Origin: Candidatus Falkowbacteria bacterium HGW-Falkowbacteria-1
Lineage (GTDB): Bacteria; Patescibacteriota; Patescibacteriia; Patescibacteriales; UBA12465
Length of the DNA stretch: 64,000 nucleotides
Assembly: GCA_002840305.1 (NCBI GenBank)
Contig: PHAI01000001.1
Span: 229,463 to 293,462 of the forward strand
Direction: 5' to 3'
The notes beneath the pieces were generated by a model that was given only the letters and a program-made list of their open reading frames with translations, did not search any database and was not told the DNA's origin. Below are positions 2,673 to 41,884 of this stretch, in pieces. The position numbers were made by a program, and so were the translations under genes. Within the stretch, counting starts at the first letter, position 1. Every line of letters begins with the position of its first letter.

Positions 2673-5115
<2,443 letters not shown>

Positions 5116-5133
5116 TTTTTTGTAATTTATTTT

Positions 5134-6612
5134 TTGAAAATGGATTTTCATAAGTTTACAATTAAAGAATTGTCTAGAATTTTACAAAAAAAAGAAATTA
5201 GTTCTTTGGATTTGTGTAATTTTTTCTTGGATAGAATTAGAAATATAGATAGTAAATTAAAAACTTGTATCAGCGTTTTCGAAGAAGAGGCTAAAAAACA
5301 AGCTATTTTAGCTGATAAAATGATAGCCAACGGGGAGAAGGGGGAATTAATAGGCATCCCTTATTTAGTAAAGGATAATATGCTGGTCAAAGGTTTTAAA
5401 ACAACTGCCGCTTCTAAAATGCTAGAAAATTACATAGCTCCTTATGACGCCACTGTAATAAAAAGATTAAAGGATTCCGGGGCTGTTCTATTGGGAAAAA
5501 CAAATATGGATGAGTTTGCTCATGGGGCTTCAACTGAAAATTCGGCCTTTTTTGTAACCAAAAACCCCTGGGATTTAGAAAGAGTACCGGGTGGGAGTTC
5601 TGGTGGGTCAGCGTCTGCTGTTTCAGCTGGTTTATGTGTTTTTGCCTTGGGTAGTGACACTGGCGGATCGATTCGCCAGCCAGCCAGTTTTTGTGGGGTC
5701 AGCGGTTTAAAACCAAGCTATTCCAGGGTCTCTAGATTTGGTTTAATTTCTATGACTTCTTCGACTGATGTTATTGGTCCGATTGCCAAAAGCGTAGAAG
5801 ATGTCGCTATGGTTATGAAAGTTATTTCAGGTTTTGATGAAAATGATTTAAGTAGCGCCAATCTTGATGTTGAGGATTATTTAAAAAATATTAATAAAAG
5901 TATAAAAGGTTTAAAGATAGGCGTTGTTAAAGAATTTGTTGATAGTTTAGACGAGAAATTTAAAGAGGTTATAAATCAGGCTATTTTGACTTTTGAAAAT
6001 TTGGGAGCAAAAATAAAATTTATTTCATTACCATATAACAAATATGCTGGTCCAGTTTATTACATTATTACCCCTTCTGAGATAAGTTCAAATTTAGCTC
6101 GCTTAGATGGAATAAGATATGGTTTTTCTGCTGATTATAAATCTAAAGGTAGTTCGGCCGAAAATTTAAATGAGCTATATTTAAATAACAGGGGCCAATC
6201 TTTTGGGCCAGAAGTGAAAAGAAGAATAATGCTTGGAACATATACTTTGAGTTCTGGCTATTTTGATGCTTATTATAAAAAGGCAATGGCCGTTAGAGAA
6301 AAGATAGAACAAGAATTTAATGATGTTTTTTCTGAAGTTGATGTTATTTTGACCCCAACATCTCCTCACGTTGCTTTTAAAATCGGAGAAAAAATAAACG
6401 ATCCTGTCAAAATGTATTTAGAGGATATTTTCGTAACAGGGCCTTCCTTGTCTGGTCTTCCGGCCATATCTATACCGGCTGGGTTCGTGGATAATTTACC
6501 GCTTGGAATTCAAATTTTTGCTAATAAATTCAAAGAGGACTTGGTTTTAAATTTGGCTAATAATTTTCAATCAAAAACAGACTTTCACAAAAAGTCGCCA
6601 GATATAAATTAA
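5134..6612 (+). CDS. gatA: Asp/Glu-tRNA amidotransferase subunit A
   Basis: Amidase signature GGSSGGSASAV and SDTGGSIRQPA. The TTG at 5134 may be replaced by ATG 5140 as the true start. Confidence 0.93.
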   Translation: MKMDFHKFTIKELSRILQKKEISSLDLCNFFLDRIRNIDSKLKTCISVFEEEAKKQAILADKMIANGEKGELIGIPYLVKDNMLVKGFKTTAASKMLENYIAPYDATVIKRLKDSGAVLLGKTNMDEFAHGASTENSAFFVTKNPWDLERVPGGSSGGSASAVSAGLCVFALGSDTGGSIRQPASFCGVSGLKPSYSRVSRFGLISMTSSTDVIGPIAKSVEDVAMVMKVISGFDENDLSSANLDVEDYLKNINKSIKGLKIGVVKEFVDSLDEKFKEVINQAILTFENLGAKIKFISLPYNKYAGPVYYIITPSEISSNLARLDGIRYGFSADYKSKGSSAENLNELYLNNRGQSFGPEVKRRIMLGTYTLSSGYFDAYYKKAMAVREKIEQEFNDVFSEVDVILTPTSPHVAFKIGEKINDPVKMYLEDIFVTGPSLSGLPAISIPAGFVDNLPLGIQIFANKFKEDLVLNLANNFQSKTDFHKKSPDIN

Positions 6613-7375: not shown

Positions 7376-7631
7376 TTAAATTTAGATAAATTATGTTGAA
7401 AATGTTTTTATTGCAGTTTCTTTTAGATACTGATGTTCATTTTTATTTAAGGGAATTAGAGGGAAAGATTAATATAAAAAAAATACTTAAAACCAAGAAA
7501 AAATAATTTTTTCTTTGTTTTATTTTTTTGGAGAGCTTCCCGTGTAATTACGAACCTTTCGTTTTGTGACGCTGGATTTCGCCATGTAAAAGTTTTTGTT
7601 ATGCTTTGCATAAGCTAAAACTAACGTGGCT

Positions 7632-7637
7632 TATAAT
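7632..7637 (+). promoter_or_regulatory. candidate -10 box (TATAAT) placing a transcription start near the tRNA 5' fragment at 7646
   Basis: Perfect TATAAT 8 nt upstream of 7646. The only TTGCAT -35-like hexamer (7606..7611) is 20 nt away, so the spacing is poor. Confidence 0.3.
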
Positions 7638-7645
7638 AAAATATT

Positions 7646-7671
7646 GGAGAGTTCGCATAGTGGTCTAGTGC
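7646..7671 (+). repeat. 26-nt exact duplicate of the 5' end (acceptor + D arm) of tRNA-Ser(GGA)
   Basis: GGAGAGTTCGCATAGTGGTCTAGTGC is identical to 8008..8033. The sequences diverge immediately afterwards, and no T arm or 3' acceptor follows. Confidence 0.9.
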
Positions 7672-7749
7672 CAGTCTTCGGCTGGTCAGTCACAGGCTGA
7701 CGCTAAATATTTTAAACTAAATGTATGGCTTGAAATATTTTTTATAAAA

Positions 7750-8001
7750 ATCATATTTTACACATATTTATTAAGAAGTAAAATTAAAAAATGGACCTAC
7801 ATTGGGCCTACAAAAAATTTATGTAGAAGGTTTAAAGAGCATAATAGCGGTAAGGTAAAATCAACGAGCCCATATTTGCCATTTGATTTGATTTATTATG
7901 AAGCATATAATAATTATACATTAGCCAGAAAAAGAGAAATTGAATTAAAAAAGAAGGGGCAACAGAAGGAAATTTTAATGGCAAGATTGAATATAGTATA
8001 A
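7750..8001 (+). CDS. small stand-alone GIY-YIG nuclease-domain protein (no canonical start codon)
   Basis: Manual translation of the frame ending at TAA 7999..8001 gives (I)IFYTYLLRSKIKKWTYIGPTKNLCRRFKEHNSGKVKSTSPYLPFDLIYYEAYNNYTLARKREIELKKKGQQKEILMARLNIV. This shows the Y..Y / YIG / R..H / E pattern of COG2827-type GIY-YIG proteins. The frame is open from 7669, but only ATA/ATC codons (7744, 7750, 7753) precede the domain, which is why it is absent from the ORF track. Confidence 0.55.
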   Translation: MIFYTYLLRSKIKKWTYIGPTKNLCRRFKEHNSGKVKSTSPYLPFDLIYYEAYNNYTLARKREIELKKKGQQKEILMARLNIV

Positions 8002-8007
8002 ACATTT

Positions 8008-8095
8008 GGAGAGTTCGCATAGTGGTCTAGTGCGCACGCTTGGAAAGCGTGTATACCGCAAGGTATCAAGGGTTCAAATCCCTTACTCTCCGCCA
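8008..8095 (+). tRNA. tRNA-Ser (anticodon GGA), class II with long variable arm, CCA encoded
   Basis: Manual cloverleaf: acceptor GGAGAGT/ACTCTCC; D arm GCA..TGC with GG; anticodon stem CACGC/GCGTG with loop TTGGAAA; variable stem ATACC/GGTAT; T arm AAGGG-TTCAAAT-CCCTT; G73; CCA. Confidence 0.95.
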
Positions 8096-8098
8096 AAC

Positions 8099-8126
8099 AA
8101 AAAACCCGAACTGCTTCGGGTTTTTT
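8099..8126 (+). terminator. rho-independent terminator after tRNA-Ser(GGA)
   Basis: A-tract, stem CCCGAA / TTCGGG with loop CTGC, then TTTTTT. Confidence 0.8.
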
Positions 8127-8144
8127 GTTTGCTGAAGATAAAAA

Positions 8145-8278
8145 GAGGGATTTGAAAGCCGGAGGCGATGTGTGAGCATAACGAACACCGCCGAGGCCGG
8201 GTCGGGGAGCTTAGCGAGCGACGAGCAAAGCGAGAAAGCGAGGCTTGGCTACCGTGACCAAACCCCTTACTCTCCGCG
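8145..8278 (+). repeat. GC-rich element, copy L, ending in a second copy of the tRNA-Ser 3' end (CCCTTACTCTCCGCG)
   Basis: GAGGGATTTGAAAGCC...GGAGGCGATGTGTGAGCATAACGAACACCGCCGAGGCCGGGTCGGGGAGCTTAGCGAGCGACGAGCAAAGCGAGAAAGCGAGGCTTGGCTACCGTGACCAAACCCCTTACTCTCCGCG. Near-identical to 9087..9259 apart from scattered substitutions and a ~39-nt indel. Confidence 0.85.
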
Positions 8279-8295
8279 AAAACAATTTTAAGAAT

Positions 8296-8334
8296 AAAAA
8301 AAGTCGAATTGCGAGATTCGACTTTGTTTGTTTT
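8296..8334. terminator. bidirectional hairpin terminator (serves the minus-strand gene 8333..8887)
   Basis: AAAAAAA, stem GTCGAAT / ATTCGAC with loop TGCGAG, then TTTGTTTGTTTT. Confidence 0.7.
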
Positions 8335-8887
8335 AGACTGTTTTAAATTCATCAAAATTGCCTGATTTTATATCGGCAACTGTCATGATTATATAAAACA
8401 ATCCACCTGCTAGAGTTGCCCACAATGGTGCGCCCCTTAAATCTCCACTTATTATGTTGATAAAACAGATTAATGCCATTCCTGACAGAATTCCAAAATA
8501 GGGCAAATGGCTAATACCTCCCAGGCTTATTTTTCCTTTTTGAGGGTAGCCCCAGTCTGGTTTGTGGGACGGCCTTAAGTTCATCCATGCAAAAATTGTG
8601 GCGAGTATAATAGAGAAAGCAATAAAGATAACCCACTCTAAGTTAGTAATTTCACCTTTTATTGCAAGGTGAATAAAGCCATTTGTAATCCATACTAGGC
8701 CGAATAAATCTCCATAGGTTTGTGTGTAAAAATCTTCCCAGTATAAAAATTTTTGCTTACTACTTGAGATAATAGATTTACGAGATGGTAGGTTGCCTCT
8801 TTTTTTGTCTAATTGCTCAGCCAAGTATTGAGATAGACAAAATAAAGTATTTAAAAGAGCGACTAAATAAAAAACTGACCAGTTCAT
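8333..8887 (-). CDS. integral membrane protein, unknown function
   Basis: 184 aa with several hydrophobic helices and no recognised motif. Flanked by the ~210-250 bp direct repeats. Confidence 0.6.
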   Translation of the reverse strand: MNWSVFYLVALLNTLFCLSQYLAEQLDKKRGNLPSRKSIISSSKQKFLYWEDFYTQTYGDLFGLVWITNGFIHLAIKGEITNLEWVIFIAFSIILATIFAWMNLRPSHKPDWGYPQKGKISLGGISHLPYFGILSGMALICFINIISGDLRGAPLWATLAGGLFYIIMTVADIKSGNFDEFKTV

Positions 8888-9008
8888 GATTTCCTCCGTT
8901 TTTTAGTTATTTTTTAATGAATTGTGTCTGTATTATATCATATTTTTTGCGATATGTCAATATTTCAGGTTTTGGTATATTTTACTTAATGAATTTTTGA
9001 ATAAAAAA

Positions 9009-9037
9009 GTTCCAACTACGTCCCACTCTCTCCGCCA
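9009..9037 (+). repeat. degenerate copy of a tRNA-Ser 3' end (no 5' half upstream)
   Basis: GTTCCAACTACGTCCCACTCTCTCCGCCA compared with GGTTCAAATCCCTTACTCTCCGCCA of the tRNA at 8071..8095. It is followed by a copy of that tRNA's terminator. Confidence 0.75.
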
Positions 9038-9040
9038 AAT

Positions 9041-9070
9041 AAAAAACCTGACTTGCGTCAGGTTTTTTTT
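9041..9070 (+). terminator. copy of the tRNA-Ser(GGA) terminator with compensatory stem changes
   Basis: Stem CCTGAC / GTCAGG (loop TTGC) plus a T-tract. Relative to 8105..8120, two stem positions changed on both arms so pairing is preserved. Confidence 0.7.
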
Positions 9071-9086
9071 GTTTGGAGATGGCTAG

Positions 9087-9259
9087 GAGGGATTTGAAAG
9101 CCCTCCTTCGCCATATTTCATATGGCTTCGGCGGGTAAACCGGAGGCGATGCGTGAGCATAGCGAACACTGCCGAGGCCGGGTCGGGGAGTTTAGCGAGC
9201 GACGAGCGAAGCGAGAAGGCGAGGCTTAGCTACCGTGGCCGAATCCCTTACTCTCCGCG
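9087..9259 (+). repeat. GC-rich element, copy R, with ~39-nt extra hairpin insert, ending in AATCCCTTACTCTCCGCG
   Basis: Aligns to 8145..8278. The extra segment 9103..9141 contains the perfect hairpin GCCATAT-TTC-ATATGGC. The last 17 nt before the final G match the tRNA-Ser(GGA) T-arm/acceptor exactly. Confidence 0.85.
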
Positions 9260-9379
9260 CTTGATTTTTATTGGTAATTTCTGTAATATATAAGCATAAG
9301 AAATCTTCGTTTTTTTTATTATTAAATAAAAAATATGGCAAAATAATTTTTTTTATTTTTATTATTAAATTTATTTTTT

Positions 9380-10573
9380 ATGAATAAAAAAATATTAACC
9401 ATGGTGATAATTTTTATTGCCATCGTTGCCCTCGGTTCATATTATTTTTGGACCAACAAGGCAGACAAAAATGTAAAAATTGTGGCAGTAGCCACCATGA
9501 GAGGAATAGACGCTGGCGTCGATACCATTAATGGTGTCAAATTAGCACTTAAAGAGGCTAATTATTTAGTCGGTAAATACAACATAGAGTTAATAGTGGA
9601 AGATAATGGAGATGAAGAGGGCTATTGGGTTGAAGATGTTGAAAAAAATATTGCTGAAAAAGCGGCAAACGATAAAGATGTTATGATTTATCTTGGACCA
9701 ATTGATAGTGGAGCGGCTAAGATTAGTTTGCCAATAACAAATAAAGCTGGATTGCCTCAAATAAGCCCTACTAATACTTGGCCAGGGCTAACCCAGGCTG
9801 GTTTTGCTCCTGGAGAACCAGGAATTTTTTATCCTACTGGAGTTAGAACTTATTTTAGGGTTTGCCCGACTGATGCCGTCCAAGGTCCAGCCGGGGCTAT
9901 TTGGGCCAAAGAGATGGGTCTTAAAAATATTTTTATATTTGATGATGGAACGCTCTACGGTACTGGTATAACTAATATTTTTGAAGAAAAAGCTGTGAGC
10001 TTGGGTTTAAATATTTTAGGACACGAGACTCTTGATAGGGAGGGCCAGAGTTTTGTTTCCGAACTTAATGAATTAAAAGATTTAGATTTGATATATTTTG
10101 GCGGAGTTCCGTCGACCGGGGTCGTTAGTCTCATTAAGGGCATTAAAGATTTGAATTTACAAGCAAAGTTTATGGGAACAGATGGAATTATGGACCAGTT
10201 TATTCTTGATCAAGCTGGAGAGTCAGCCGAAGGTATTTACTTGACTACTATTGGGTCGCCAATAAATGAATTACAAGATGAAGGGGCAGATTTTTATAAA
10301 AACTATGTTAGTGAATACGGAATAGAGCCAAATACATATTCAGCTTTTGGTTATGAAGCCGCAAAAGTTTCCCTGTTAGCCATAGATAGGGCGGGTCAAA
10401 AAAACAGAGAAAAAGTTCTTGGGGAGTTGGCTGGTTTGCGAGATTTCCCGGGTATTTTTGGAAATTGGAGCTTTAACTCTAGCGGTGACACAGATTTAAT
10501 CTTGGTAAGCGGAAACATTGTAAGAGATGGAAAGTTTGAATATGAAAAAACATTGAGTTCCGGTAATAATTAA
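9380..10573 (+). CDS. membrane-anchored type-1 periplasmic binding protein (LivK / branched-chain amino acid binding-like)
   Basis: 397 aa with an N-terminal TM anchor, then a PBP1-like alternating pattern (YLGPIDSGAAK, RVCPTDAVQGPAGA, IYFGGVPSTG, AFGYEAAKV). No ABC permease or ATPase genes are adjacent. Confidence 0.65.
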   Translation: MNKKILTMVIIFIAIVALGSYYFWTNKADKNVKIVAVATMRGIDAGVDTINGVKLALKEANYLVGKYNIELIVEDNGDEEGYWVEDVEKNIAEKAANDKDVMIYLGPIDSGAAKISLPITNKAGLPQISPTNTWPGLTQAGFAPGEPGIFYPTGVRTYFRVCPTDAVQGPAGAIWAKEMGLKNIFIFDDGTLYGTGITNIFEEKAVSLGLNILGHETLDREGQSFVSELNELKDLDLIYFGGVPSTGVVSLIKGIKDLNLQAKFMGTDGIMDQFILDQAGESAEGIYLTTIGSPINELQDEGADFYKNYVSEYGIEPNTYSAFGYEAAKVSLLAIDRAGQKNREKVLGELAGLRDFPGIFGNWSFNSSGDTDLILVSGNIVRDGKFEYEKTLSSGNN

Positions 10574-10600: not shown

Positions 10601-12889
10601 ATGCTCAAAGAAAAATTAAAAAAAATATTTAGTAAAATAGGGCTTAAACTATTAACGCCTTATTTGGTTTTTTCTTTTTTTGTTTTTCTATTGATATCCG
10701 TTTTTGTTTACTATAATTATAATTCTGAAATGAATTTTATAGAGGATAGTCAACAAAAAATGGCAGAAAGCGTAAGTAGCGAAATTGACTTTTTTATTTT
10801 TAGTACAATAAATGATCTCCAGTTTGTTAGTAAGAATATTGCTTGTTTAGATTGTTATGAGAATAATAGTTTTTTGATAAACAATTTGTTTGATGTTAAT
10901 TCTGATATTTATAGTGTTCATATCTTTGATCGGCAAAAAGGAATTACTAATGACCTGCATAGATATAGTAAAGATGATCATTCTGGCGATTTTGGTGTTG
11001 GCATATTTGAAGACGGGAAATTGTTGAAAGGTTTTGATAGGGGCACCTTTATTAGCCCCGTTTACGTTTCTGTTTATGACTTGCCTTTCATTTTTATTGG
11101 AGTGCCCATTTTTGATGAAGTTAATATACAGATAGGGACGGTTGTGGCCGAAGTTGATTTAACTTTTATTTGGGATGTGATTTCTAGAAACAAGTTTAAA
11201 AAAACAGGGTATGTTTATGCGGTTGATGTCAGTCAAAAACCTAGGCTTATTGCTTATAAAGATATTTCTTTTCTCAAATCGGGTTATGACGTCAGTGGCT
11301 TTGTTGGCGTCAATAATATCGTTAATCACAATCATTCCTTTTCTGTTTATGAGTCTTTCGATGGCAAGAAAGTTGTTGGCGCTTGGAGTTCGATCAATTC
11401 TACGAACTGGGGTTTGTTGGTAGAACTTCCAGTTAAAGAGATTTTTAGTGATCTTTTTATTTTGCTAGTTATTAGCATTATCTCAATTCTTCTTTTTGTT
11501 TTTTTTATAATCGTGATACTCGTTAGTATTTATAGAAATTTATTAACTCCATTGAAGGGGCTTACTGCTGGAGTTAATGAAATTAGCCTCGGAAATCTGA
11601 AGCACGTTGTAGAGATCAAAACTGACGACGAAATTGAAGAATTAGCAGAATCTTTTAATGCGATGACTCACGACTTAAGAGTCTCTCATAATAAATTAAA
11701 GGATTATAGTGTTAATTTGGAAAATAAAGTTAGAGCCAGGACTTTGAGTTTAACAGAGGAAAAGAAAAAATTAAAAAAAATCAATAATAAACTTACCGAG
11801 AGCGAACAAAAATTTAGAAGCTACATCGACAAAGCTCCCGATGGCATATTTGTTATTAACAAAAATGGTGCGTTTATTGAAGCAAACAACTCATCGCTTT
11901 TATTTATCGGATGCTCAGAAGAAGATTTAAAAAAAATAAAGTTTTTCGATATAATTTGTGACAAAGATGTTCCTCAAATTAAAAAACATTTAGAAACTGT
12001 TTTAAAATTAGGACAGGCAGAGGACGACGTTCTTTACAAGAGAAGGGGCGACAATGTTGAAGGGGATAGTTGTGGCAGGTATTTTAATGTCAGTAGCGTT
12101 AAACTTTCTGGTGATTTAATTTTGGTTTTCGTTAAAGATATTACTAAAGAAAAAGAGGTTGATAAGGCAAAAACAGAATTTGTATCTTTGGCCTCACATC
12201 AGCTCCGCACTCCTTTATCAGCTATAAATTGGTACTCTGAAATGCTTTTGGCTGGAGATGGCGGAAAGTTAACCAAAGATCAAAGAAAATTTAGCGAAGA
12301 GATATCTGCTAGCAACAAAAGAATGGTGGAACTCGTTAATTCTTTGTTGAATGTTTCTCGCTTGGAAATGGGCACCTTCATTATTGATCCAGAACCTACG
12401 AATGTTGTTGAAATTATGGAAAGCGTTATCAAAGAACAAATTCCAATGATAGTAAGCAAGAAAATAGAGGTTAAGAAAAAAATATCTTCTGATATTCCGA
12501 TAATTAATTCTGACCCGAAACTATTACGTATTGTTTTCCAAAATTTAGTTTCCAATGCCGTTAAATATACATCTGAAAACAAGAGCCTTTATGTGGAGAT
12601 TTCTCTTGATAAGAAAAAGAAAAGTATTTATATAAAAGTTCAGGATGAGGGTTATGGAATTCAAAAGAATCAACAAGATAGAATATTCAGTAAGCTTTTC
12701 AGAGCTGATAATGTTAAAAAGAAAAACACCGAAGGAACTGGGTTGGGCCTATATATTGTAAAGGCAATAGTTGCCCATGCTGGTGGTAATATTTGGTTTG
12801 AGTCAGAAGAGAACAAAGGAACAATCTTCCATCTAATGTTACCTCTTAAAGGTATGAAGGCCAAAAAGGGAGATAGGAGTCTTTCGTAG
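10601..12889 (+). CDS. sensor histidine kinase (2 TM, extracytoplasmic sensor domain, HAMP, coiled coil, PAS, HisKA, HATPase_c)
   Basis: H-box FVSLASHQLRTPLSAI, N box SNAVKYT, G boxes DEGYGI / GTGLGL, HAMP-like LTAGVNEISLGNL...ELAESFNAMT. Confidence 0.9.
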   Translation: MLKEKLKKIFSKIGLKLLTPYLVFSFFVFLLISVFVYYNYNSEMNFIEDSQQKMAESVSSEIDFFIFSTINDLQFVSKNIACLDCYENNSFLINNLFDVNSDIYSVHIFDRQKGITNDLHRYSKDDHSGDFGVGIFEDGKLLKGFDRGTFISPVYVSVYDLPFIFIGVPIFDEVNIQIGTVVAEVDLTFIWDVISRNKFKKTGYVYAVDVSQKPRLIAYKDISFLKSGYDVSGFVGVNNIVNHNHSFSVYESFDGKKVVGAWSSINSTNWGLLVELPVKEIFSDLFILLVISIISILLFVFFIIVILVSIYRNLLTPLKGLTAGVNEISLGNLKHVVEIKTDDEIEELAESFNAMTHDLRVSHNKLKDYSVNLENKVRARTLSLTEEKKKLKKINNKLTESEQKFRSYIDKAPDGIFVINKNGAFIEANNSSLLFIGCSEEDLKKIKFFDIICDKDVPQIKKHLETVLKLGQAEDDVLYKRRGDNVEGDSCGRYFNVSSVKLSGDLILVFVKDITKEKEVDKAKTEFVSLASHQLRTPLSAINWYSEMLLAGDGGKLTKDQRKFSEEISASNKRMVELVNSLLNVSRLEMGTFIIDPEPTNVVEIMESVIKEQIPMIVSKKIEVKKKISSDIPIINSDPKLLRIVFQNLVSNAVKYTSENKSLYVEISLDKKKKSIYIKVQDEGYGIQKNQQDRIFSKLFRADNVKKKNTEGTGLGLYIVKAIVAHAGGNIWFESEENKGTIFHLMLPLKGMKAKKGDRSLS

Positions 12890-12914
12890 ATAATTTATTA
12901 TTAAATATAGAAAT

Positions 12915-13307
12915 ATGAAAAAAAGCAACGATCCTTTGAAAAAAATATTGGTTGTTGAAGATGACAGGGCGCTATCTGAGGCTATTTCAATGAAACTAAG
13001 GAATAATGGTTTTGAAGTACTTCGCTCTTCCAGAGTTTCTGACGCCTTTTTAACATTAATGAAAAATAAAGATGTTAAGTTTATTTGGTTGGATCATTAT
13101 TTGCTAGGAGAAGAGAGTGGCTTCGATTTTGTGGTAAAAGTAAAAGAAGAGGGATCAGAAGTGAGAGACATCCCCATTTTTGTGGTTTCCAATACTGCTA
13201 GTGTCGACAAAATAAAATCTTATATTAAACTTGGTGTTGATAAGTATTATATTAAAGCTGAACATAGTTTAGAGGATTTGATTGAAGAAATGAAAAATTT
13301 TGTTTAG
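12915..13307 (+). CDS. single-domain response regulator (receiver only)
   Basis: 130 aa: VVEDD, putative phospho-acceptor in IWLDHYL, VVSNT, KYYIK. No output domain. Confidence 0.8.
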   Translation: MKKSNDPLKKILVVEDDRALSEAISMKLRNNGFEVLRSSRVSDAFLTLMKNKDVKFIWLDHYLLGEESGFDFVVKVKEEGSEVRDIPIFVVSNTASVDKIKSYIKLGVDKYYIKAEHSLEDLIEEMKNFV

Positions 13308-13352
13308 TAATGTCGGCATTGATTTGTTTTACCATCTCTTGTGGAAATAAAA

Positions 13353-13388
13353 GCCGGATTTTATATTAATATAAATTTCGGTTTTTTT
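13353..13388 (+). terminator. AT-rich hairpin terminator after the response regulator
   Basis: GCCGGATTT-TATATTAATATA-AATTTCGG (imperfect stem) followed by TTTTTTT. Confidence 0.45.
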
Positions 13389-13404
13389 AGAAAATAAGAA
13401 AAAA

Positions 13405-13433
13405 TTGACTAAAATTCTTTATTTTAGTAGTAT
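13405..13433 (+). promoter_or_regulatory. candidate sigma70-type promoter for valS
   Basis: TTGACT, 17-nt spacer, TAGTAT. Confidence 0.4.
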
Positions 13434-13485
13434 TTAGTAGTGTTATTATATTTATTTTTTAAGATTTCAATTAAATTATACTTTT

Positions 13486-15837
13486 ATGTTAGAGAAATAC
13501 ATTTTTTCTGAAAGAGAGGAATGTTGGCGTAAATATTGGGAGGAAAATAAGATTTATGAATTTAATCCTGATAGCGATAAGCCTTTTTATTCAGTTGATA
13601 CTCCGCCGCCCTATGTTTCCGCCGATCATCTTCATTTTGGCCATATTATGAGTTATTCCCAGGCAGAGTTTATAGTTCGTTACAAAAGGATGGCTGGTTT
13701 TGAGGTTTTTTATCCTATGGGTTTCGATGATAATGGTTTGCCGACCGAGAGATTTGTTGAGAAAAAGTATAATATTAACAAAAAACAAATTACTAGACCA
13801 GAATTTATTAATAAATGCCTGGAAGAGACGAAGATTGGAGCCGAAACTTATAGAAAGCTTTGGAGTTTGATTGGCATATCAGTCGATTGGTCAAAAACTT
13901 ATAGTACTATAAATAAACATTGTCAAAAGATTTCTCAGTGGTCATTTTTAGATTTATATAAAAAAGGTAAAATAATTCAAAGAGAAGAGCCTGGCGCTTG
14001 GTGTACAACCTGTCAAACAGCTATAGCCCAGGCAGATTTAGAAGACGAAGAAAATGAAAGTCAGATGAATTATATAAATTTTAAGGATGAAGAAGGTAAT
14101 GATTTGTTGATAGCGACGACTCGCCCAGAGTTAATTCCAGCCTGCGTGGCCTTGTTTGTCAATCCAAATGATAGTAGGTATTCTAGTTTAGTCGGAAAAA
14201 AGGCTATTGTGCCAATTTCAAAGCATGAGGTTCCTATTATGACTGACGAAAGCGTTGATTTGGAGTTTGGTAGTGGATTGATGATGGTTTGTACTTGGGG
14301 AGATAATGAAGATGCCAAAAAATACAGAATACACAATTTAGAGACCAGGGCTATCTTAGAGGCTGACGGCAAATTGAATGAATTGGCCGGTGAATTTGTT
14401 GGTATGACTTTAAAAGATGCTAGAAAGGCGATTTTAGAAAAACTTCAAAATAATGGAGAACTAATAAGGCAAGAAAACATAAGTCATGTTTTAAATGTTC
14501 ATGAGCGATGTGGTACCCCAGTGGAGCTGATAAAAACAAAACAATTTTTTATAAACATTTTAGATATTAAAGATGAACTTTTGGCACTAGGAGAAAAAAT
14601 GAATTGGTATCCAGCTCATATGAAGCAGAGATACATTGATTGGGTAAAAGCTTTGCAATGGGATTGGTGTATTTCTCGCCAAAGATACTATGGCGTTCCT
14701 TTTCCTGTTTGGTATTGCGAAAAGTGTGGTGAATTAATTTTACCTGAAGAAAAAGATTTGCCCGTTGATCCTATGAATGAATCTCCTAAAATTTCTCAAT
14801 GTCCAAAGTGTGGGGGAGAAAATTTTTTACCAGAAAATGATGTTATGGACACCTGGATGACATCTTCTCTTTCCCCTTTAATAGTTTCCAAATTATTTGA
14901 AAATGAAAATGTGCAAAATAAACTATATCCATCATCACTTCGTCCCCAGGCTTTTGAAATTATTAGAACCTGGTTGTTTTATACCACGGTAAAATCTTTT
15001 TATCATTTTGGTGATGTTCCTTTTAAAGATATTATGATTTCTGGCCACGGACACGATGAAAAAGGGCAAAAGATTTCTAAGCGTTTAGGAAACTATGTTC
15101 CGCCAGAACAAGTCATTGAAAGGTATGGGGCCGATGCTATGCGTTATTGGTCGACTGGGGCTAATTTGGGGGAGAACCTACGTTATAGTGAAAATGAGAT
15201 AAAGAATGGATCTCGTTTGGTTAATAAATTATTCAATGCCTCCAAATTCTGTTTGTCTTTTTTGAGTTATGAAAACAAAGAGTTGAGTGAAGATTTGGAA
15301 GAAGAAGATAAATGGATTATTAATAGTTTAAATAAAACGGTTTCTTTAGCGACTAAATATATGGAATCTTATCAATATTCTAGAGCTAGAAACGAAATTG
15401 ATGATTTTTTCTGGTCAAAATTCTGTGATAACTATTTGGAATTCATAAAATCACGTTTATATGGTGACGTTCCTGATGTTAAAGTAAAGAGCGTTTTGTA
15501 CCAAGTTCTCTTAATAATAATGAAGCTTTATGCTCCATTTTTGCCTTTTATTACAGAAGAAGTTTATCAAGATTTTTATCAAAAAGATATCGGAGAAAAG
15601 AGTATCCATTTAAGTTCTTGGCCTAAAAACATAGAAATAGAAATTAATGAAGAGGATATTGCTTCTTTCGAGAAGGCAATTGAGGCTGTCGCAGAGATTA
15701 GGGGGCACAAATCGGATAATAAATTATCGTTAGGAAAAGAATTGGATGAGTATCAGTTAAAAATAGAAGTTGATGAAAAACATTTTGATTTTATAAAAAG
15801 AGCTATTAAGGTTAAAAATTTGATCCCGAGGAAGTAA
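13486..15837 (+). CDS. valS: valine--tRNA ligase (short, archaeal-like form)
   Basis: Class I aaRS: PPPYVSADHLHFGH (HIGH), KISKRLGN (KMSKS), ATTRPELIPA editing-domain motif, WDWCISRQRYYGVPFP. At 783 aa it appears to lack the long C-terminal coiled coil. Confidence 0.75.
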   Translation: MLEKYIFSEREECWRKYWEENKIYEFNPDSDKPFYSVDTPPPYVSADHLHFGHIMSYSQAEFIVRYKRMAGFEVFYPMGFDDNGLPTERFVEKKYNINKKQITRPEFINKCLEETKIGAETYRKLWSLIGISVDWSKTYSTINKHCQKISQWSFLDLYKKGKIIQREEPGAWCTTCQTAIAQADLEDEENESQMNYINFKDEEGNDLLIATTRPELIPACVALFVNPNDSRYSSLVGKKAIVPISKHEVPIMTDESVDLEFGSGLMMVCTWGDNEDAKKYRIHNLETRAILEADGKLNELAGEFVGMTLKDARKAILEKLQNNGELIRQENISHVLNVHERCGTPVELIKTKQFFINILDIKDELLALGEKMNWYPAHMKQRYIDWVKALQWDWCISRQRYYGVPFPVWYCEKCGELILPEEKDLPVDPMNESPKISQCPKCGGENFLPENDVMDTWMTSSLSPLIVSKLFENENVQNKLYPSSLRPQAFEIIRTWLFYTTVKSFYHFGDVPFKDIMISGHGHDEKGQKISKRLGNYVPPEQVIERYGADAMRYWSTGANLGENLRYSENEIKNGSRLVNKLFNASKFCLSFLSYENKELSEDLEEEDKWIINSLNKTVSLATKYMESYQYSRARNEIDDFFWSKFCDNYLEFIKSRLYGDVPDVKVKSVLYQVLLIIMKLYAPFLPFITEEVYQDFYQKDIGEKSIHLSSWPKNIEIEINEEDIASFEKAIEAVAEIRGHKSDNKLSLGKELDEYQLKIEVDEKHFDFIKRAIKVKNLIPRK

Positions 15838-16434: not shown

Positions 16435-16521
16435 GGAGAGGTGCCAGAGTGGTTGAATGGAACAGTCTTGAAAACTGTCGTGCCTTAACGGGTACCGAGG
16501 GTTCGAATCCCTCCCTCTCCG
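16435..16521 (+). tRNA. tRNA-Ser (anticodon UGA), class II, CCA not encoded
   Basis: Acceptor GGAGAGG/CCTCTCC; anticodon stem ACAGT/ACTGT with loop CTTGAAA; variable stem GTGCC/GGTAC; T arm GAGGG-TTCGAAT-CCCTC; G73. Confidence 0.95.
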
Positions 16522-16531
16522 CGATAATAAA

Positions 16532-16559
16532 ATAGCCTTTAAACAAGGGCTATTTTTTA
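16532..16559 (+). terminator. terminator after tRNA-Ser(UGA)
   Basis: ATAGCC...GGCTAT hairpin followed by TTTTTT. Confidence 0.7.
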
Positions 16560-16601
16560 TAGGGAGTTTATTATTTTGAGACACCATGTTATAATTACAA
16601 T

Positions 16602-36001: not shown

Positions 36002-38584
36002 ATGATTTCTAATACAAAAAAAAGAGGTTTTACTCTCATTGAACTCCTGGTGGTAATAGCTATTATCGGAATACTCGCAACGCTTGCCGTAGTAGCCTTG
36101 CAACAAGCAAGGCAAAACGCTAGAGATAGCAAAAGGATTGCAGACATGAAGCAGGTTCAAACCGCTTTAGAACTATTCTTTAATGAAAATGGAAGATATC
36201 CTACTACTGAAGAATGGAACAGCGGAGCTATTATTTCATCTTCTTCTCAGGAGGTGTTTATGTATAATATTCCTTCCGCCCCTACTCCAGCTGATGGAGA
36301 CTGTCTATCTGCTTCTAATACTTATACTTATATACCTCAAAACAATGGAGCTAGCTATACCATAGATTTCTGTACCGGCAAACAAGTTTCCGGCCTACCA
36401 GGTGGAGCCAAGCAAATGACTCCGGGCGGAATAATCTTCGCTGGTGGTGTCCCCGATGGAGGAGAGGCAGTTTGTGAACCTGCTTGTGGCGATGGTTATG
36501 ATTGCGTTGACGGTTCTTGCATTTTAGCTGGTAGCGATATTTACCACGTTGCAACGGTTGTTGATAATTCTATACCATATTTAAAGAACTCTTTTAATAT
36601 TGGTATGAGTGGAAATTATATTTTTGTTACAGATGATCGTAATCATTTTGAAACTTTAAATGCCTCTAATCCAGGAAGTCCAGTCCACAGCAGTTTATTG
36701 AGTGGTTTGTATTCTCCTAGAACCATATTTGTTGCTGATAATTTTGCTTATGTTCTCGGCAGTAATGGTTTGATAATTGTTGATATTTCTAACCCAGCTA
36801 ATCCAGTACAAAGAGGTACAGCTAATTTGGGTAATTTGGGTAATCCTAATGCTAAATTTTATGTTTCTGGTGATTATGTTTATAGTGTTGTTGATCAATA
36901 TTTTACCATCGCTGACATTTCTGATCCCGATAATCCATCTTTTGTAGCTGAATTCAGCAGATACTATGATTTTAATCCTATACCAGTACTTGCTCAGCCC
37001 CAAGGAATAATTGTTAGCGGTAGTTATGCCTATGTTGTAAATAGTGGCTATAATCCAGGGTCTGGTATCTATAACGCCTTAGAGGTTTTTGATGTTTCTA
37101 ATCCCTTGGACATTTCTCTTGTAACCAGAATTGTTAGCGGTGATGCTGGCGGGGCCGTAGTTGACGTTCCTACTAACTTAAACATTTATGGTAATTATTT
37201 ATATTTTGTTAATACTAATTATTATGCCACCGGTGATGAAGATTTGTCTTTGGAAATTATTAATATTTCTAATCCAGCATCGCCTGCCCATGTTACAAAT
37301 TTTGATTTAAATAGTACGGAGTTTCCAGTTGGCATGAAAATAGCGAGCAATAAGGCTTATATAGTCTCGGTTGATTATCTTCCTCAAGATCAACCCGGAA
37401 CGGTAACTATTGTTGATATAAGCAATGTTAGTAGCCCGGTTAAATTAGATGAAATAAGTAACGGTGAGGATGGCTCTGAAATTTTTCCTACTAGTGGAAT
37501 AGAAATTTCTGGCAATTACGCTTATATTAGTAATTCTAATTCTTCAATGGAGATTCTTAATATTTCCAACCCCTTACAAATTGAACACCATGGTATTATA
37601 CGGCACGGACAGAGTGGAACATTATTAGAATATCCAGCTGTGGTTTTTTCTTCTGGTGATGACGTTTATGTTGGTAGCGACAGGGGTCTGCAAATATTTA
37701 ATACTTCTAATAAAAGTAATCCAATTTCTGTTGGTAATATAGTCGATGGCGCTGCTGGCGCCAAGCTTAATTCCCCCTATGGTATAGATGTTGTTGGTAA
37801 TTATGCTTATATAGCTTCATATCAAAGTGATGCCTTAGAAATAGTTGATATTACCAATAAAGCCAATCCGGTTCATAAAGGTTATTTGGCTAATTTATCA
37901 GGTGGCGCTAAACTTGATGGTCCATATTCTGTAAAAGTAAAAGATAATTATGCCTATCTTGTTAGCTACTATGATAATGCCATGGAGGTGGTTAATGTTT
38001 CTGACCCAGCAAATCCAGTACATACATCAAGTATGATCAATAATTACTCAACTATAAATATTTATCGTCCTTATTCTATCTTTGTTTCTGGTGATTATGC
38101 ATATGTGGCCGGGATTAATGGTTTACAAATAATAGATATATCCAATCCAGCTTCGCCAATCGCTAAAGATAGTTTTTTAGATGGTGATGATGGCATTTCC
38201 TTTGAATCTTGGTCTGTTTTTGTCAGGGGTGATTATGCCTATATTGCTAGCTACTGGCCAGGCAAGATGGTTGTTTTTAATATTTCCGATCCAAACAATA
38301 TTGTTTTTGTTGGCGAGCTGGAACATGGAACGGGGGATACTAATTTAGAGTGTGCTAATAACATCTACGTTTCTAACGACTATGCTTATATAACTAATGA
38401 CTGTGATTATGCCTTGGAAGTTATTGATATATCTAATCCGTTAATGCCAGTACATGCCGCTAAAATAGACAACTCTACCGGAGCTGAATTTGAAGGACCA
38501 ATATCTGTTTCGGTTGCCAACGGATACGCTTTTATAGCTAGTAATTATAATAATATTTTTGAAGTGATAAAAGTCCCTAATTAA
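36002..38584 (+). CDS. modular type IV pilin: N-terminal pilin module fused to a large LVIVD-repeat (beta-propeller) domain
   Basis: KKRG|[24 protein letters not shown] class III signal. At least 10 LVIVD-type repeats ([90 protein letters not shown] ...). Confidence 0.85.
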
Positions 38585-40942: not shown

Positions 40943-41884
40943 ATGAGAATATTAATAACTGGTGGATCTGGATTTATAGGCTCTTTTTTAAGTGAAAAGC
41001 TTGTAACTGATGGGCATGAGGTGCTTTGTTTGGACAATCTTTTTACCGGGAACAAGGAGAATGTTGCTCATTTGTTAGATAAAAACAATTTTTCTTTTAT
41101 AAACCACGATATTATTGATCCCTTTTATTTTGATGGAAAAATAGATCAGATATACAATTTGGCCTGCCCAGCCTCTCCTATTCATTATCAACAAAATCCT
41201 GTGAGAACTATTAAAGCTAATACCATTGGTGTTATAAATATGCTCGGTTTAGCTAGAGCCCATGGGGCTAAAATTCTCCAGGCATCAACTAGCGAGGTCT
41301 ATGGAGACCCAGAAGTTAGCCCTCAGAAGGAGAATTACAGAGGGAGCGTTAACACTATCGGCCCTCGGGCTTGTTACGACGAGGGTAAAAGATGTGCTGA
41401 GACTCTCTTTTTTGATTATAAAAGGATGCATGGCATGAATATTAAAGTAATTAGGATTTTTAATACTTATGGACCCAAGATGGCTTTAGACGATGGAAGG
41501 GTAATGTCTAATTTTATAATTCAAGCTTTGAAAAATGAGAATATCACTATTTATGGTGATGGTAGTCAGACTAGAAGTTTTTGCTACATCAGTGACTTGG
41601 TTGATGGTATGGTTAAAATGATGAATTCTGATTTTAGTGGTCCTATAAATTTGGGAAATCCGAACGAAATGACCATCAAATCTTTGGCCGAAATGATAAT
41701 TAAGAAATTGAACAGTAAAAGCAAGTTGATATTTATGAATTTACCAGAGGATGATCCAAAACAGAGATGTCCAGATATTTCCTTGGCTAAAAGTAAATTA
41801 AATTGGGAGCCGAAAGTTTCTCTGGAAGAAGGTCTAGATTATATATCTGATTTTTTTAAGAAAAAGCTAGAAAATATAGAATAA
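40943..41884 (+). CDS. UDP-glucuronate decarboxylase (UDP-xylose synthase)
   Basis: [67 protein letters not shown]. Collinear with the UXS family as I recall it. ATG 40943 preferred over TTG 40937. Confidence 0.88.

Follow-up and report, generated by a model that had tools for sequence, protein, structure and literature searches.

Beside an intact tRNA-Ser(GGA) gene in a genome of the Patescibacteria, two direct repeats, each combining tRNA 3'-end sequence with a terminator and a GC-rich element, flank a single membrane-protein gene. The arrangement resembles the attL and attR of an island integrated at a tRNA gene, as a preliminary description proposed, and it raises the question of what has been inserted here, i.e., one small element bounded by the repeats, or the repeats themselves. 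We analyzed the whole 64-kb stretch of DNA around the locus (the window), together with related loci. Each repeat is one copy of a non-autonomous, gene-less cassette of ~185 nt, which we named E, and the membrane-protein gene is a separate single-gene insertion between the two E copies.

Two cassette copies beside tRNA-Ser(GGA)

The proposal that 8071-8278 and 9009-9259 are diverged direct repeats was borne out by a repeat search and a MAFFT alignment. The repeat search returned a 123-nt core with 91% identity (8156-8278 versus 9137-9259), a 48-nt block with 81% identity (8079-8126 versus 9021-9068) and a 16-nt block with 100% identity (8145-8160 and 9087-9102). The alignment united these three blocks into one unit, the right copy carrying an additional 39 nt (9101-9139) within its core that are missing from E1 and from every other copy. 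All ten of the differences in the 123-nt block, read off the alignment, are transitions. The two GC-rich elements are the top GC stretches of the window (65-66%, versus 32% window-wide). The sequence CCCTTACTCTCCGC occurs exactly three times (at 8080, 8264 and 9245), with 0.19 occurrences expected at up to two mismatches, and the 20-mer GCCGAGGCCGGGTCGGGGAG occurs twice, with none expected.

Each unit runs in the order terminator, spacer, 5' arm complementary to the tRNA T-loop/T-stem, GC-rich core and displaced tRNA 3' end (Table 1). The E1 5' arm is reverse-complementary to the T-loop plus the 3' strand of the T-stem (tRNA nt 66-76). The two terminator hairpins had been noted to differ by compensatory substitutions, and we could confirm two compensatory pair changes between CCCGAA/TTCGGG (8105-8120) and CCTGAC/GTCAGG (9047-9062). 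Hairpins homologous to that of E1, also with compensatory stems, are present in L006 and L045. Because a CUGC/UUGC loop is common to many cassettes in other genomes, we regard the hairpin as a conserved part of the cassette, and the compensatory changes fit the divergence of two cassette copies.

The right-hand repeat had been described as starting with a decayed tRNA 3' end (9009-9035). This segment is not the product of random decay: it comprises a conserved motif, AAAAAAGTTCCAACTACG (motif M), together with the tRNA-end copy TCCCACTCTCTCCGCCA, and the pair recurs at homologous junctions in other genomes. Motif M is also found at the right end of other single-gene units (twice in L044, and in L045 and L043). 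The unit with the membrane-protein gene has two boundaries, the tRNA-end copy at 8260-8278 and the segment at 9003-9037, in which motif M is followed by a tRNA-end copy. Its promoter consists of TTGACA, a 17-nt spacer and TATAAT, with a TG. The protein belongs to no Pfam or NCBIfam family, and its relatives are limited to Patescibacteria among the matches obtained. A simple tandem segmental duplication, in which one contiguous segment is repeated head-to-tail, was rejected, since the gene and motif M are single-copy and the E unit alone is repeated.

Upstream of the tRNA and outside the repeat, the exact copy of the tRNA 5' end forms the left edge of a GIY-YIG insertion. The GIY-YIG frame has no ATG, GTG or TTG start before 7876, and its stop lies 6 nt upstream of the tRNA. 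The same combination of tRNA 5' copy and GIY-YIG frame occurs at tRNA-Ser(TGA) in L045.

Table 1. Features of the tRNA-Ser(GGA) locus, in window coordinates
Position	Strand	Feature	Evidence
7646..7671	+	Exact copy of tRNA-Ser(GGA) nt 1-26 (acceptor 5' strand and D arm)	Repeat comparison
7702..8001	+	GIY-YIG nuclease-domain open frame	PF01541, E=1.7e-14
8008..8095	+	tRNA-Ser(GGA), intact; T-loop-to-CCA portion (8073-8095) is tRNA-end copy 1	
8098..8126	+	E1 hairpin/terminator: A-run, CCCGAA, loop CTGC, TTCGGG, T-run	
8145..8156	+	E1 5' arm GAGGGATTTGAA	
8157..8259	+	E1 GC-rich core, helices P2 and P3 of three-way junction	Covariance model R1, 140.7 bits
8260..8278	+	E1 3' arm, displaced tRNA 3'-end copy AAACCCCTTACTCTCCGCG, without CCA	
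8300..8325	.	Bidirectional terminator hairpin, 3' end of membrane-protein gene	
8333..8887	-	Membrane-protein gene, 184 aa predicted	
8932..8960	-	Sigma-70-type consensus promoter of membrane-protein gene	12/12 matches
9003..9020	+	Motif M AAAAAAGTTCCAACTACG, conserved right end of single-gene cassettes	
9021..9037	+	Older tRNA 3'-end copy with CCA TCCCACTCTCTCCGCCA	
9041..9070	+	E2 hairpin/terminator: A-run, CCTGAC, loop TTGC, GTCAGG, T-run	
9087..9098	+	E2 5' arm GAGGGATTTGAA	
9099..9240	+	E2 GC-rich core	Covariance model R1, 98.5 bits
9241..9259	+	E2 3' arm, outermost tRNA 3'-end copy GAATCCCTTACTCTCCGCG	

Recurrence of E and fold of its core

We found 15 distinct E copies at ~11 loci of low-GC Patescibacteria. 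The core adjoins tRNA-Ala (L014, L029, L034 and L036), tRNA-Val (L016/L022), tRNA-Gln (L033), tRNA-Ser(GGA) (L035, L037-40 and L041) or tRNA-Ser(TGA) (L045), i.e., five tRNA species, and the arms agree with the adjacent tRNA at every locus. The 3' arm repeats the tRNA sequence in direct orientation, beginning at T-loop position 56/57 and ending with the discriminator (19 nt, with 100% identity in L014, L016 and L029); the 5' arm is reverse-complementary to tRNA positions 54/55 to 67/69 (14-15 nt, 100% in L014 and L016). The flanking repeat comprises 17-21 nt of the tRNA, or 80 nt in L037. A leader (C.AACAAAAA), a CTGC loop and a GTTTATGTT spacer are common to many, but not all, E cassettes at different tRNAs, and the stems covary; the terminator and spacer belong to the cassette.

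E is found singly (L014, L016, L035 and L041) or in arrays (L036). The order in L036 is tRNA-Ala/termA-E/termC-F/termA-E', and that in its relative L034 is tRNA-Ala/termC-F/termA-E; the difference is precisely one cassette, that nearest the tRNA, which a 21-nt repeat delimits. Around E, the two terminators have exchanged places in L014 and L029. Syntenic relatives vary in the region downstream of E, and the distal tRNA-end copies have decayed in L034, L036b and L041.

These copies were collected by several routes. A genome scan with the 20-mer returned 11 loci, 8 of which were discarded as matches to high-GC coding sequence (Actinomycetota, Thermoplasmata and others). A metagenome scan returned at least 16 loci, and among the matches listed 14 were chance matches; the last block of the pattern used, TACCGTG, was too narrow, most E copies having GACCGTG. 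Further copies were recovered by translating the element and seeking spurious ORFs. The right-hand unit had no blastn match in phage and plasmid collections, and two pattern scans of viral contigs yielded no E.

On the tRNA-sense strand, the E core folds into a three-way junction that is supported by covariation and closed by pairing of the 5' arm with the displaced tRNA 3' end, the arms forming helix P1. In the consensus fold 96.3% of cells pair, compared with 89.2% in shuffles and about 35% in slid controls, and 15 pairs have changed on both sides, a result attained by none of 500 shuffles. Single well-kept copies reached the consensus fold with z scores of -3.3 to -8.2 on the + strand, versus -1.75 on the minus strand. 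Of all copies those in the window fold least well (z = -1.1), E2 having the lowest model score, and the two may be relics.

At the gathering score, Rfam recognized only tRNA in the window and at 10 related loci, and the E core matches no family; a search of 7400-9400 at E values up to 10 gave nothing credible. Hammerhead and other ribozymes, group I/II intron fragments, tmRNA and Y-RNA-like molecules were therefore set aside. Neither a promoter search nor a reading of the spacers disclosed a convincing sigma-70 promoter in front of the E core. An RNA gene on the minus strand, ending at the bidirectional terminator, is less likely because the + strand folds better (96.3% paired versus ~92.8%, G.U pairs becoming A.C). 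We also rejected a conserved small protein (AEAGSGSL...), because the reading frame changes from one copy to another and the hairpins have lengths not divisible by three, and a split or permuted tRNA, assembled from the 5' fragment at 7646 and the 3' end of E, which fails as a general explanation because most E loci lack the 5' fragment.

Proposed serial insertion and its alternatives

The locus probably arose by the stacking of small insertions onto the tRNA-Ser(GGA) 3' end, through serial site-specific recombination catalyzed in trans. According to this proposal, E would supply the sequence at present continuing or completing the tRNA 3' end, plus a hairpin terminator, and a GC-rich module whose 5' arm is reverse-complementary to the tRNA T-loop/T-stem. 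Insertion would occur inside the segment from the T-loop to the discriminator, by means of a putative recombinase encoded elsewhere. If the material furthest from the tRNA is the oldest, the native tRNA end would be the copy at 9241-9259. E2 would then have been inserted, bringing its terminator (term2) and core, followed by the single-gene unit (the membrane-protein gene, its promoter, its terminator and the motif M end) and, lastly, by E1, which may alternatively have arisen by duplication of E2 via the tRNA-end repeats. Simple site-specific recombination does not account for an internal 5' arm that matches each new tRNA.

As the preliminary description had it, no recombinase is evident: across the 64 kb, none of the ORFs with 110 aa or more has a Pfam domain of an integrase, recombinase or transposase. 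Nor was a recombinase found adjoining any E copy or in the gene lists of related loci. The GIY-YIG nuclease is unsupported as the cassette enzyme, being near only 3 of the ~11 distinct loci.

It is possible, if rather doubtful, that the second copy was generated on the spot, crossing-over or slippage between tRNA-end copies having doubled the terminator-E-tRNA-end unit, with the membrane-protein unit later entering the middle copy. E1 and E2 are mutually closest (86% identical over the cassette, versus 72-81% for other copies), so that one could be a local, repeat-mediated duplicate of the other, and they have in common a private version of the hairpin (hpA). In addition, the middle tRNA-end copy (9021-9037) runs on into CCA, leader and terminator like the tRNA itself, which is the expected product of unequal exchange between copies 1 and 2. 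Against a local origin stand the 14% divergence, the 39-nt indel and the compensatory stem changes; the divergence is large, whereas the outermost tRNA-end copy (9242-9258) still matches the tRNA exactly and that at 8259-8277 has a single mismatch. Because the first cassette and the gene unit would still have to be inserted, local duplication is a variant of serial insertion rather than an alternative to it.

Serial insertion treats the tRNA-like ends of E as insertion scars. They would be there by design if E were a vertically inherited, functional non-coding RNA of the host, residing beside tRNA genes and acting, for example, in tRNA maturation or on the T arm. The strong covariation, together with one G.U pair that never varies and several changes that preserve G.U pairing on the tRNA-sense strand, is what such an RNA might display. 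The GC content is 57-65% for the E copies but 29-37% for the genomes that carry them, the core is strongly conserved across the whole set of copies, and the 5' arm retains its complementarity to the functional tRNA even at loci with a decayed downstream copy. We nevertheless think a host RNA gene improbable. The distribution is patchy, the exact 20-mer occurring in only 3 of the species genomes scanned, and different tRNAs are occupied in different lineages. Repeated identical cassettes form arrays in L036, close relatives being one cassette apart; a terminator lies between the tRNA and E, which has no evident promoter of its own; and distal tRNA-end copies decay.

The attL/attR interpretation was supported as regards the architecture, i.e., insertion at a tRNA gene, with the tRNA regenerated and displaced 3'-end copies left behind. 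When an island enters a tRNA or tmRNA gene, the gene is restored and a displaced piece of it stays behind (Islander definition, PMC4383910). We find an intact target tRNA gene with a displaced 3' fragment as the far-end direct repeat, as in an island of the Islander type, but not the integrase that such an island encodes. Direct repeats containing the tRNA 3' end do flank a single, independently transcribed gene. That the repeats are literally the attL and attR of one 0.7-1.2-kb element carrying that gene is, however, very unlikely. They are not the att pair of a 0.7-kb island, since each is a complete, separately bounded cassette with its own terminator, GC-rich module and displaced tRNA end, and each has two tRNA-end copies of its own. 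The repeat unit also occurs with no gene between its copies (L036) or singly, and homologues of the gene are present in other contexts without flanking E.

An assembly artefact, in which the repeat had been collapsed or mis-joined, can be dismissed: although some short-read contigs stop at the repeats (L002 at 9029, L051 at 9001 and L003 at 8313), two ENA assemblies (contigs L004 and L005) span both repeats and the gene with 99.96-100% identity, and the copies could not be collapsed because 14% of positions differ. The repeat-gene-repeat arrangement is reproduced in five independent assemblies, and a JGI contig (302 kb) and Logan contigs are concordant wherever they overlap. All 6-8 contigs carrying the flanking proteins have the identical arrangement or break at the repeats, and among them there was no empty site, circular junction or presence/absence variant at this locus.

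Comparison with known systems and significance

The attB site of phage Ms6 lies in a T-loop (PMC1762012). Like islands and prophages inserted into tRNA and tmRNA genes by tyrosine integrases, E has an identity block that starts in the T-loop and extends to the 3' end; element-borne sequence regenerates the tRNA, and the displaced 3' fragment marks the far end. Unlike them, E is 185 nt long with no gene and no integrase; its interior contains the attachment sequence again, in inverted orientation, and its GC-rich fold covaries.

In the tycheposon islands of Prochlorococcus, successive integrations push older elements outward and scatter partial tRNAs (bioRxiv 10.1101/2020.12.28.424599), and the ssrA islands of Dehalococcoides are reported to be tandem arrays formed by serial integration at one gene (PMC3146451). 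Our locus is similar in the probable entry of new units next to the tRNA, with older units outward, in its scattered partial tRNA copies and in content that varies among relatives. Those elements, however, measure kilobases and bring recombinases of their own, whereas the units at our locus are compact, single-gene or gene-less, with conserved ends (E core or motif M) and with no recombinase in 64 kb.

Integrons gather arrays of small cassettes, some of them gene-less, at one docking site, and their attC sites are imperfect inverted repeats of ~60-140 nt at the cassette end that can fold on one strand. The imperfect inverted repeat at the ends of E likewise folds on one strand (arms forming P1; + strand supported). 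There is no IntI, attI or Pc platform at our locus, only the GIY-YIG frame lying upstream of the tRNA, and on reading the alignment we saw no RYYYAAC/GTTRRRY core sites, the arms of E being tRNA-derived (GGGATTCGAA ... GAATCCC). Docking is at the T arm of a tRNA, the arms of E vary with the target tRNA, and the single-gene units have their own promoter and terminator.

CIMEs are integrative elements that lack a recombinase and are mobilized in trans, while IMEX such as the CTX phage present a folded, single-stranded attP to the host XerCD; in CTX, base pairing between the two inverted halves of attP, in single-stranded DNA, mimics the chromosomal site. E is similarly non-autonomous and bounded by att repeats, and its arms could, by analogy, mimic the duplex of the tRNA T arm. 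No dif-like site is present at E. The bridge RNA of the IS110 family and the exon-binding sites of group II introns are structured modules with short target-complementary segments, and E is an RNA-like module whose target-complementary segments differ between targets. In contrast to these guide-type RNAs, it has no adjoining recombinase or reverse transcriptase and no Rfam match. Unlike the IS110 bridge RNA, its target-matching segments pair together in a closed helix rather than occupying open guide loops, and there is no DEDD recombinase beside it. A MITE or other transposon was rejected, since constant terminal inverted repeats and a short target-site duplication are lacking and the arms differ with the tRNA.

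The GC-rich module may be either an RNA cargo or a folded attachment site. A broader conjecture, which we consider unlikely, is that Patescibacteria carry an integron-like cassette platform on their tRNA genes, with the T-loop/3' end receiving both compact single-gene units that end in motif M and gene-less GC-rich units of the E and F/G types. In that case the GC-rich modules would serve as folded single-strand attachment sites or guide-like RNAs, their arms re-matched to each T arm, and a putative recombinase or nuclease would come from elsewhere.

The Patescibacteria (CPR bacteria) have very small genomes with few recognizable mobile elements, and horizontal gene flow among them is poorly understood. 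Their tRNA genes gather compact cassettes with no recombinase nearby, one class of which has a conserved, covarying GC-rich three-way-junction module, absent from Rfam, and ends tailored to the local tRNA. E cassettes account for spurious "hypothetical proteins" annotated on GC-rich stretches, and the covariance model R1 and motif M provide handles for tracing the partner enzyme by co-occurrence. As a folded attachment site or a guide, the GC-rich module would represent a new way for cassettes to be captured; as an RNA cargo, it would represent a new family of non-coding RNAs tied to tRNA genes.

Repeats around a single membrane-protein gene

A repeat search of the window, a MAFFT alignment and multiple assemblies bore out the architecture given in the preliminary description, i.e., direct repeats on either side of a membrane-protein gene next to tRNA-Ser(GGA) (Table). 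The three repeat blocks form one unit in the alignment, with the right copy carrying an additional 39 nt at 9101-9139, and within the 123-nt block the two copies are separated by transitions only (10). Exact matches to the 14-mer CCCTTACTCTCCGC number three in the window against 0.19 expected, and a core 20-mer occurs twice against 0 expected. The two GC-rich elements, termed E1 (left) and E2 (right), have the highest GC content in the window (65-66%, against 32% overall). The compensatory changes claimed for the two terminator hairpins were also seen, at two pairs. Because independent ENA, JGI and Logan assemblies reproduce the arrangement, two of them spanning the whole region at 99.96-100% identity, the observation is confirmed and an assembly artefact is ruled out.

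The gene is preceded by a perfect TTGACA-17-TATAAT promoter and followed by a bidirectional terminator. Its product matched no family in Pfam or NCBIfam; among 38 homologues, all of those with a source name are from Patescibacteria. At the right boundary of its unit, what had been taken for a decayed tRNA 3' end proved to be a conserved motif, M, together with a tRNA-end copy; M also terminates other single-gene units. L044 has two copies of M, L045 one, and L043 a variant form. In L044, two unrelated genes have a common leader of about 150 nt, and each ends with M and TCCCTCCCTCTCCGCG. These genes, encoding 165 and 179 amino acids with no Pfam match, lie in an array of single-gene units (4640-6210, minus strand), each laid out as a promoter-like ATTGACA...TGATAT, gene, terminator, AAAAAAGTTCCAAYTACG and TCCCTCCCTCTCCGCG. 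L045, at tRNA-Ser(TGA), repeats the whole window mosaic: a tRNA 5' fragment, two hairpins and a GIY-YIG gene upstream; the tRNA, a terminator of the same family and E in the middle; and, distally, a gene for 179 amino acids, M, a tRNA end, a terminator and an opposite-strand homologue of the membrane protein.

Several other features of the window were noted. Only E2 has the 39-nt insertion, in which CCCTCC could pair locally with GGAGGG of the 5' arm and which introduces a GCCATAT/ATATGGC hairpin. The spacer ahead of E2 contains GGAGAT, also complementary to the acceptor 3' strand. At 16435-16600, the second tRNA-Ser (TGA) has a plain terminator and no cassette, with a weak arm-like ATAGGGAG 3' of the terminator. 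Further GC peaks (55-61%) at 36371-36520, 41291-41370, 55911-56000 and 61101-61200 all lie within long ORFs (for an LVIVD-repeat pilin-like protein, an epimerase, a pilin-like protein and an unknown 756-aa protein). Compared with window 11502-15098, JGI contig L003 (from another sample, 3300038334) has several deletions in the sensor-kinase and Ile-tRNA-synthetase-like region, representing either strain variation or a fragmented assembly.

Features of the tRNA-Ser(GGA) locus and of related cassettes (L-numbers are contigs or loci from other genomes, metagenomes or assemblies)
Feature	Location	Details
tRNA-Ser(GGA)	8008-8095	
Repeat block pair	8156-8278 / 9137-9259	123 nt, 91% identity
Repeat block pair	8079-8126 / 9021-9068	48 nt, 81%
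Repeat block pair	8145-8160 / 9087-9102	identical
Membrane-protein gene	8333-8887	minus strand
Left bound of its unit	8260-8278	tRNA-end copy
Right bound of its unit	9003-9020	motif M AAAAAAGTTCCAACTACG, then TCCCACTCTCTCCGCCA
E leader		C.AACAAAAA, then hairpin with T-run
E spacer	between hairpin and 5' arm	~16 nt
E core		GAAAGCC.GAGGCGATG, hairpin A, CCGCCGAGGCCGGGTCGG.., variable hairpin B, ..TTAGC.ACCGTGACC
E 3' arm		copy of tRNA 3' end
E beside tRNA-Ser(GGA)	window, L035, L037-40, L041	
E beside tRNA-Ser(TGA)	L045	
E beside tRNA-Ala(TGC)	L014, L029, L034, L036	
E beside tRNA-Val(TAC)	L016/L022	
E beside tRNA-Gln(TTG)	L033	
F/G-type gene-less GC-rich cassettes	L036 5745-5960; L034 5744-5959; L041 1189-1403; L037 8055-8265	

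A cassette family at tRNA 3' ends

When genomes were scanned with the core 20-mer, the GC-rich core was located in three other low-GC genomes (L006, L014 and L016), and a metagenome scan, the pattern of which was too narrow, added L022 and L029. Translated E matched seven "hypothetical proteins" in a spurious-ORF search, and their contigs provided L033-L043; L045 was found via a homologue of the window membrane protein. These public protein calls (P0001-P0007, 47-88 aa, motif AEAGSG.L) are translated E, i.e., annotation artefacts. Altogether there were 15 distinct E copies (14 in alignment A4, plus L045), a small sample recovered in part through gene-calling artefacts, so that the taxonomic spread and the set of target tRNAs are lower bounds.

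The order within E was constant: tRNA end (or an older copy of it), leader, hairpin, spacer, 5' arm, core and 3' arm, with a length of 182-195 nt measured between the tRNA end and the following tRNA-end copy. The 3' arm of L014 and L016 matches the tRNA from position 56/57 to the end (19 nt, 100%), and positions 54/55 to 67/69 are represented in the 5' arm by their exact reverse complement (14-15 nt); the corresponding matches in the window are 17-19 nt and 11 nt. At sites that distinguish the tRNA copy from the downstream one, the 5' arm is closer to the former, which on an insertion model would be the cassette-borne one. The outermost tRNA-end copies are decayed in L034, L036b and L041. We consider it very probable that E is a discrete cassette family, horizontally distributed, which sits at the 3' ends of tRNA genes and has arms matching the tRNA.

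Several comparisons indicate that the units behave as cassettes. With termA and termC denoting terminator types, L036 reads tRNA-Ala, termA-E, termC-F, termA-E', and its relative L034 reads tRNA-Ala, termC-F, termA-E; the two are exactly one tRNA-proximal cassette apart, bounded by the 21-nt repeat GAATCCCTTAGGGTCCACTAA. The F core is a different GC-rich sequence with the same arm logic as E, and L041 and L037 have related cores, next to tRNA-Ser and tRNA-Ser(TGA), respectively. Cassettes of this F/G type have motifs like TGAGCGACG and GAGGCGGAA in common and run terminator, 5' arm complementary to the T arm, core, tRNA-end copy; none of those at the four loci was in Rfam. L014 and L029 are syntenic (~76% identity), with the two terminators swapped around E. 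In L037-40, an 80-nt direct repeat spanning the T-loop through the 5' arm lies on both sides of the core, followed by ParE/antitoxin, Fic and HTH genes. Gene content between E and the next conserved gene varies among relatives. After E at tRNA-Gln, L033 has a GC-rich stretch (1440-1610) with five or six CACGTG-centred boxes and then an 89-aa GIY-YIG gene.

Fold of the core

RNAalifold, with 6 and then 14 copies, predicted a three-way junction in which P1 pairs the two arms, P2 comprises GCC/GGC, GGCG/CGCC and hairpin A, and P3 comprises GGUCG/UGACC, GG/CC, NGCU/AGCN and hairpin B. In A4, 96.3% of cells could pair, against 89.2% in column shuffles (none of 500 reached 96.3%), and pairing fell to ~35% with slid partners. 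Changes on both sides were present at 15 pairs, e.g., C-G/A-U at 81-126, with an 8:6 split. The core helices contain an invariant G.U pair and nine more G.U cells against four A.C cells, so that the tRNA-sense strand folds better. Well-kept single copies reached the consensus fold (z = -3.3, -4.2 and -8.2; a minus strand, -1.75), and DNA folding parameters gave the same fold. The window copies folded most weakly (E1, z = -1.1), and E2, which bears the 39-nt insertion, had the lowest model score. Rfam had no match for E, nor for the remaining GC-rich cores, across the window and ten related loci.

Proposed serial insertion and possible roles of the module

These facts fit serial insertion into the segment of the tRNA gene from the T-loop to the 3' end. 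Such behaviour is known from islands that target tRNAs, which regenerate the gene, with the displaced fragment marking their end (PMC4383910); attB of Ms6 lies in the T-loop (PMC1762012), and tycheposon arrays grow adjacent to tRNAs (bioRxiv 10.1101/2020.12.28.424599). In the window, the native tRNA end would be the outermost one (9241-9259), with E2 entering first, then the gene unit with M, and E1 last. E1 and E2 resemble each other (86%) more than any other copy, so that the final step may instead have been a repeat-mediated duplication before the gene arrived. We judge serial insertion, as an overall explanation of the locus, to be moderately probable, and trans-acting site-specific recombination as its mechanism to be an evenly balanced proposition.

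Pfam scans covering every ORF of 110 aa or more at 15.9-63.7 kb, together with precomputed Pfam lists for ~1-19 kb, contained no integrase, recombinase, transposase or reverse transcriptase; the content was housekeeping, envelope, glycosyltransferase and two-component genes. The sole nuclease-like frame was a GIY-YIG domain immediately 5' of the tRNA (7702-8001; PF01541, E = 1.7e-14), and such a gene is near just 3 of ~11 distinct loci. No canonical start precedes 7876 in this frame, which terminates 6 nt short of the intact tRNA. Window 7646-8001 consists of an exact copy of nt 1-26 of tRNA-Ser(GGA), two small hairpins and the GIY-YIG frame; L045 has a matching layout at tRNA-Ser(TGA), in which the GIY-YIG gene is intact and the tRNA 5' copy measures 36 nt. 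The stretch looks like insertion of a nuclease gene into the 5' half of a tRNA gene, with regeneration of the latter.

Three features of the system are unusual: units of just 185 nt or one gene, the lack of a recombinase nearby, and a GC-rich covarying module, inside which lies an inverted copy of the attachment sequence that varies with the target tRNA. The module could be a non-coding RNA cargo, its closing helix built from the attachment repeat, a reading mildly favoured by the M-ended units, which seem to dock without an E-type core. The integron attC site and the CTX attP hairpin are folded single-strand attachment sites, and by analogy with these the module could itself be such a site; slight support for a role at the DNA level comes from the lack of a promoter and from the breakpoints in L037, which are symmetric at the two arms.
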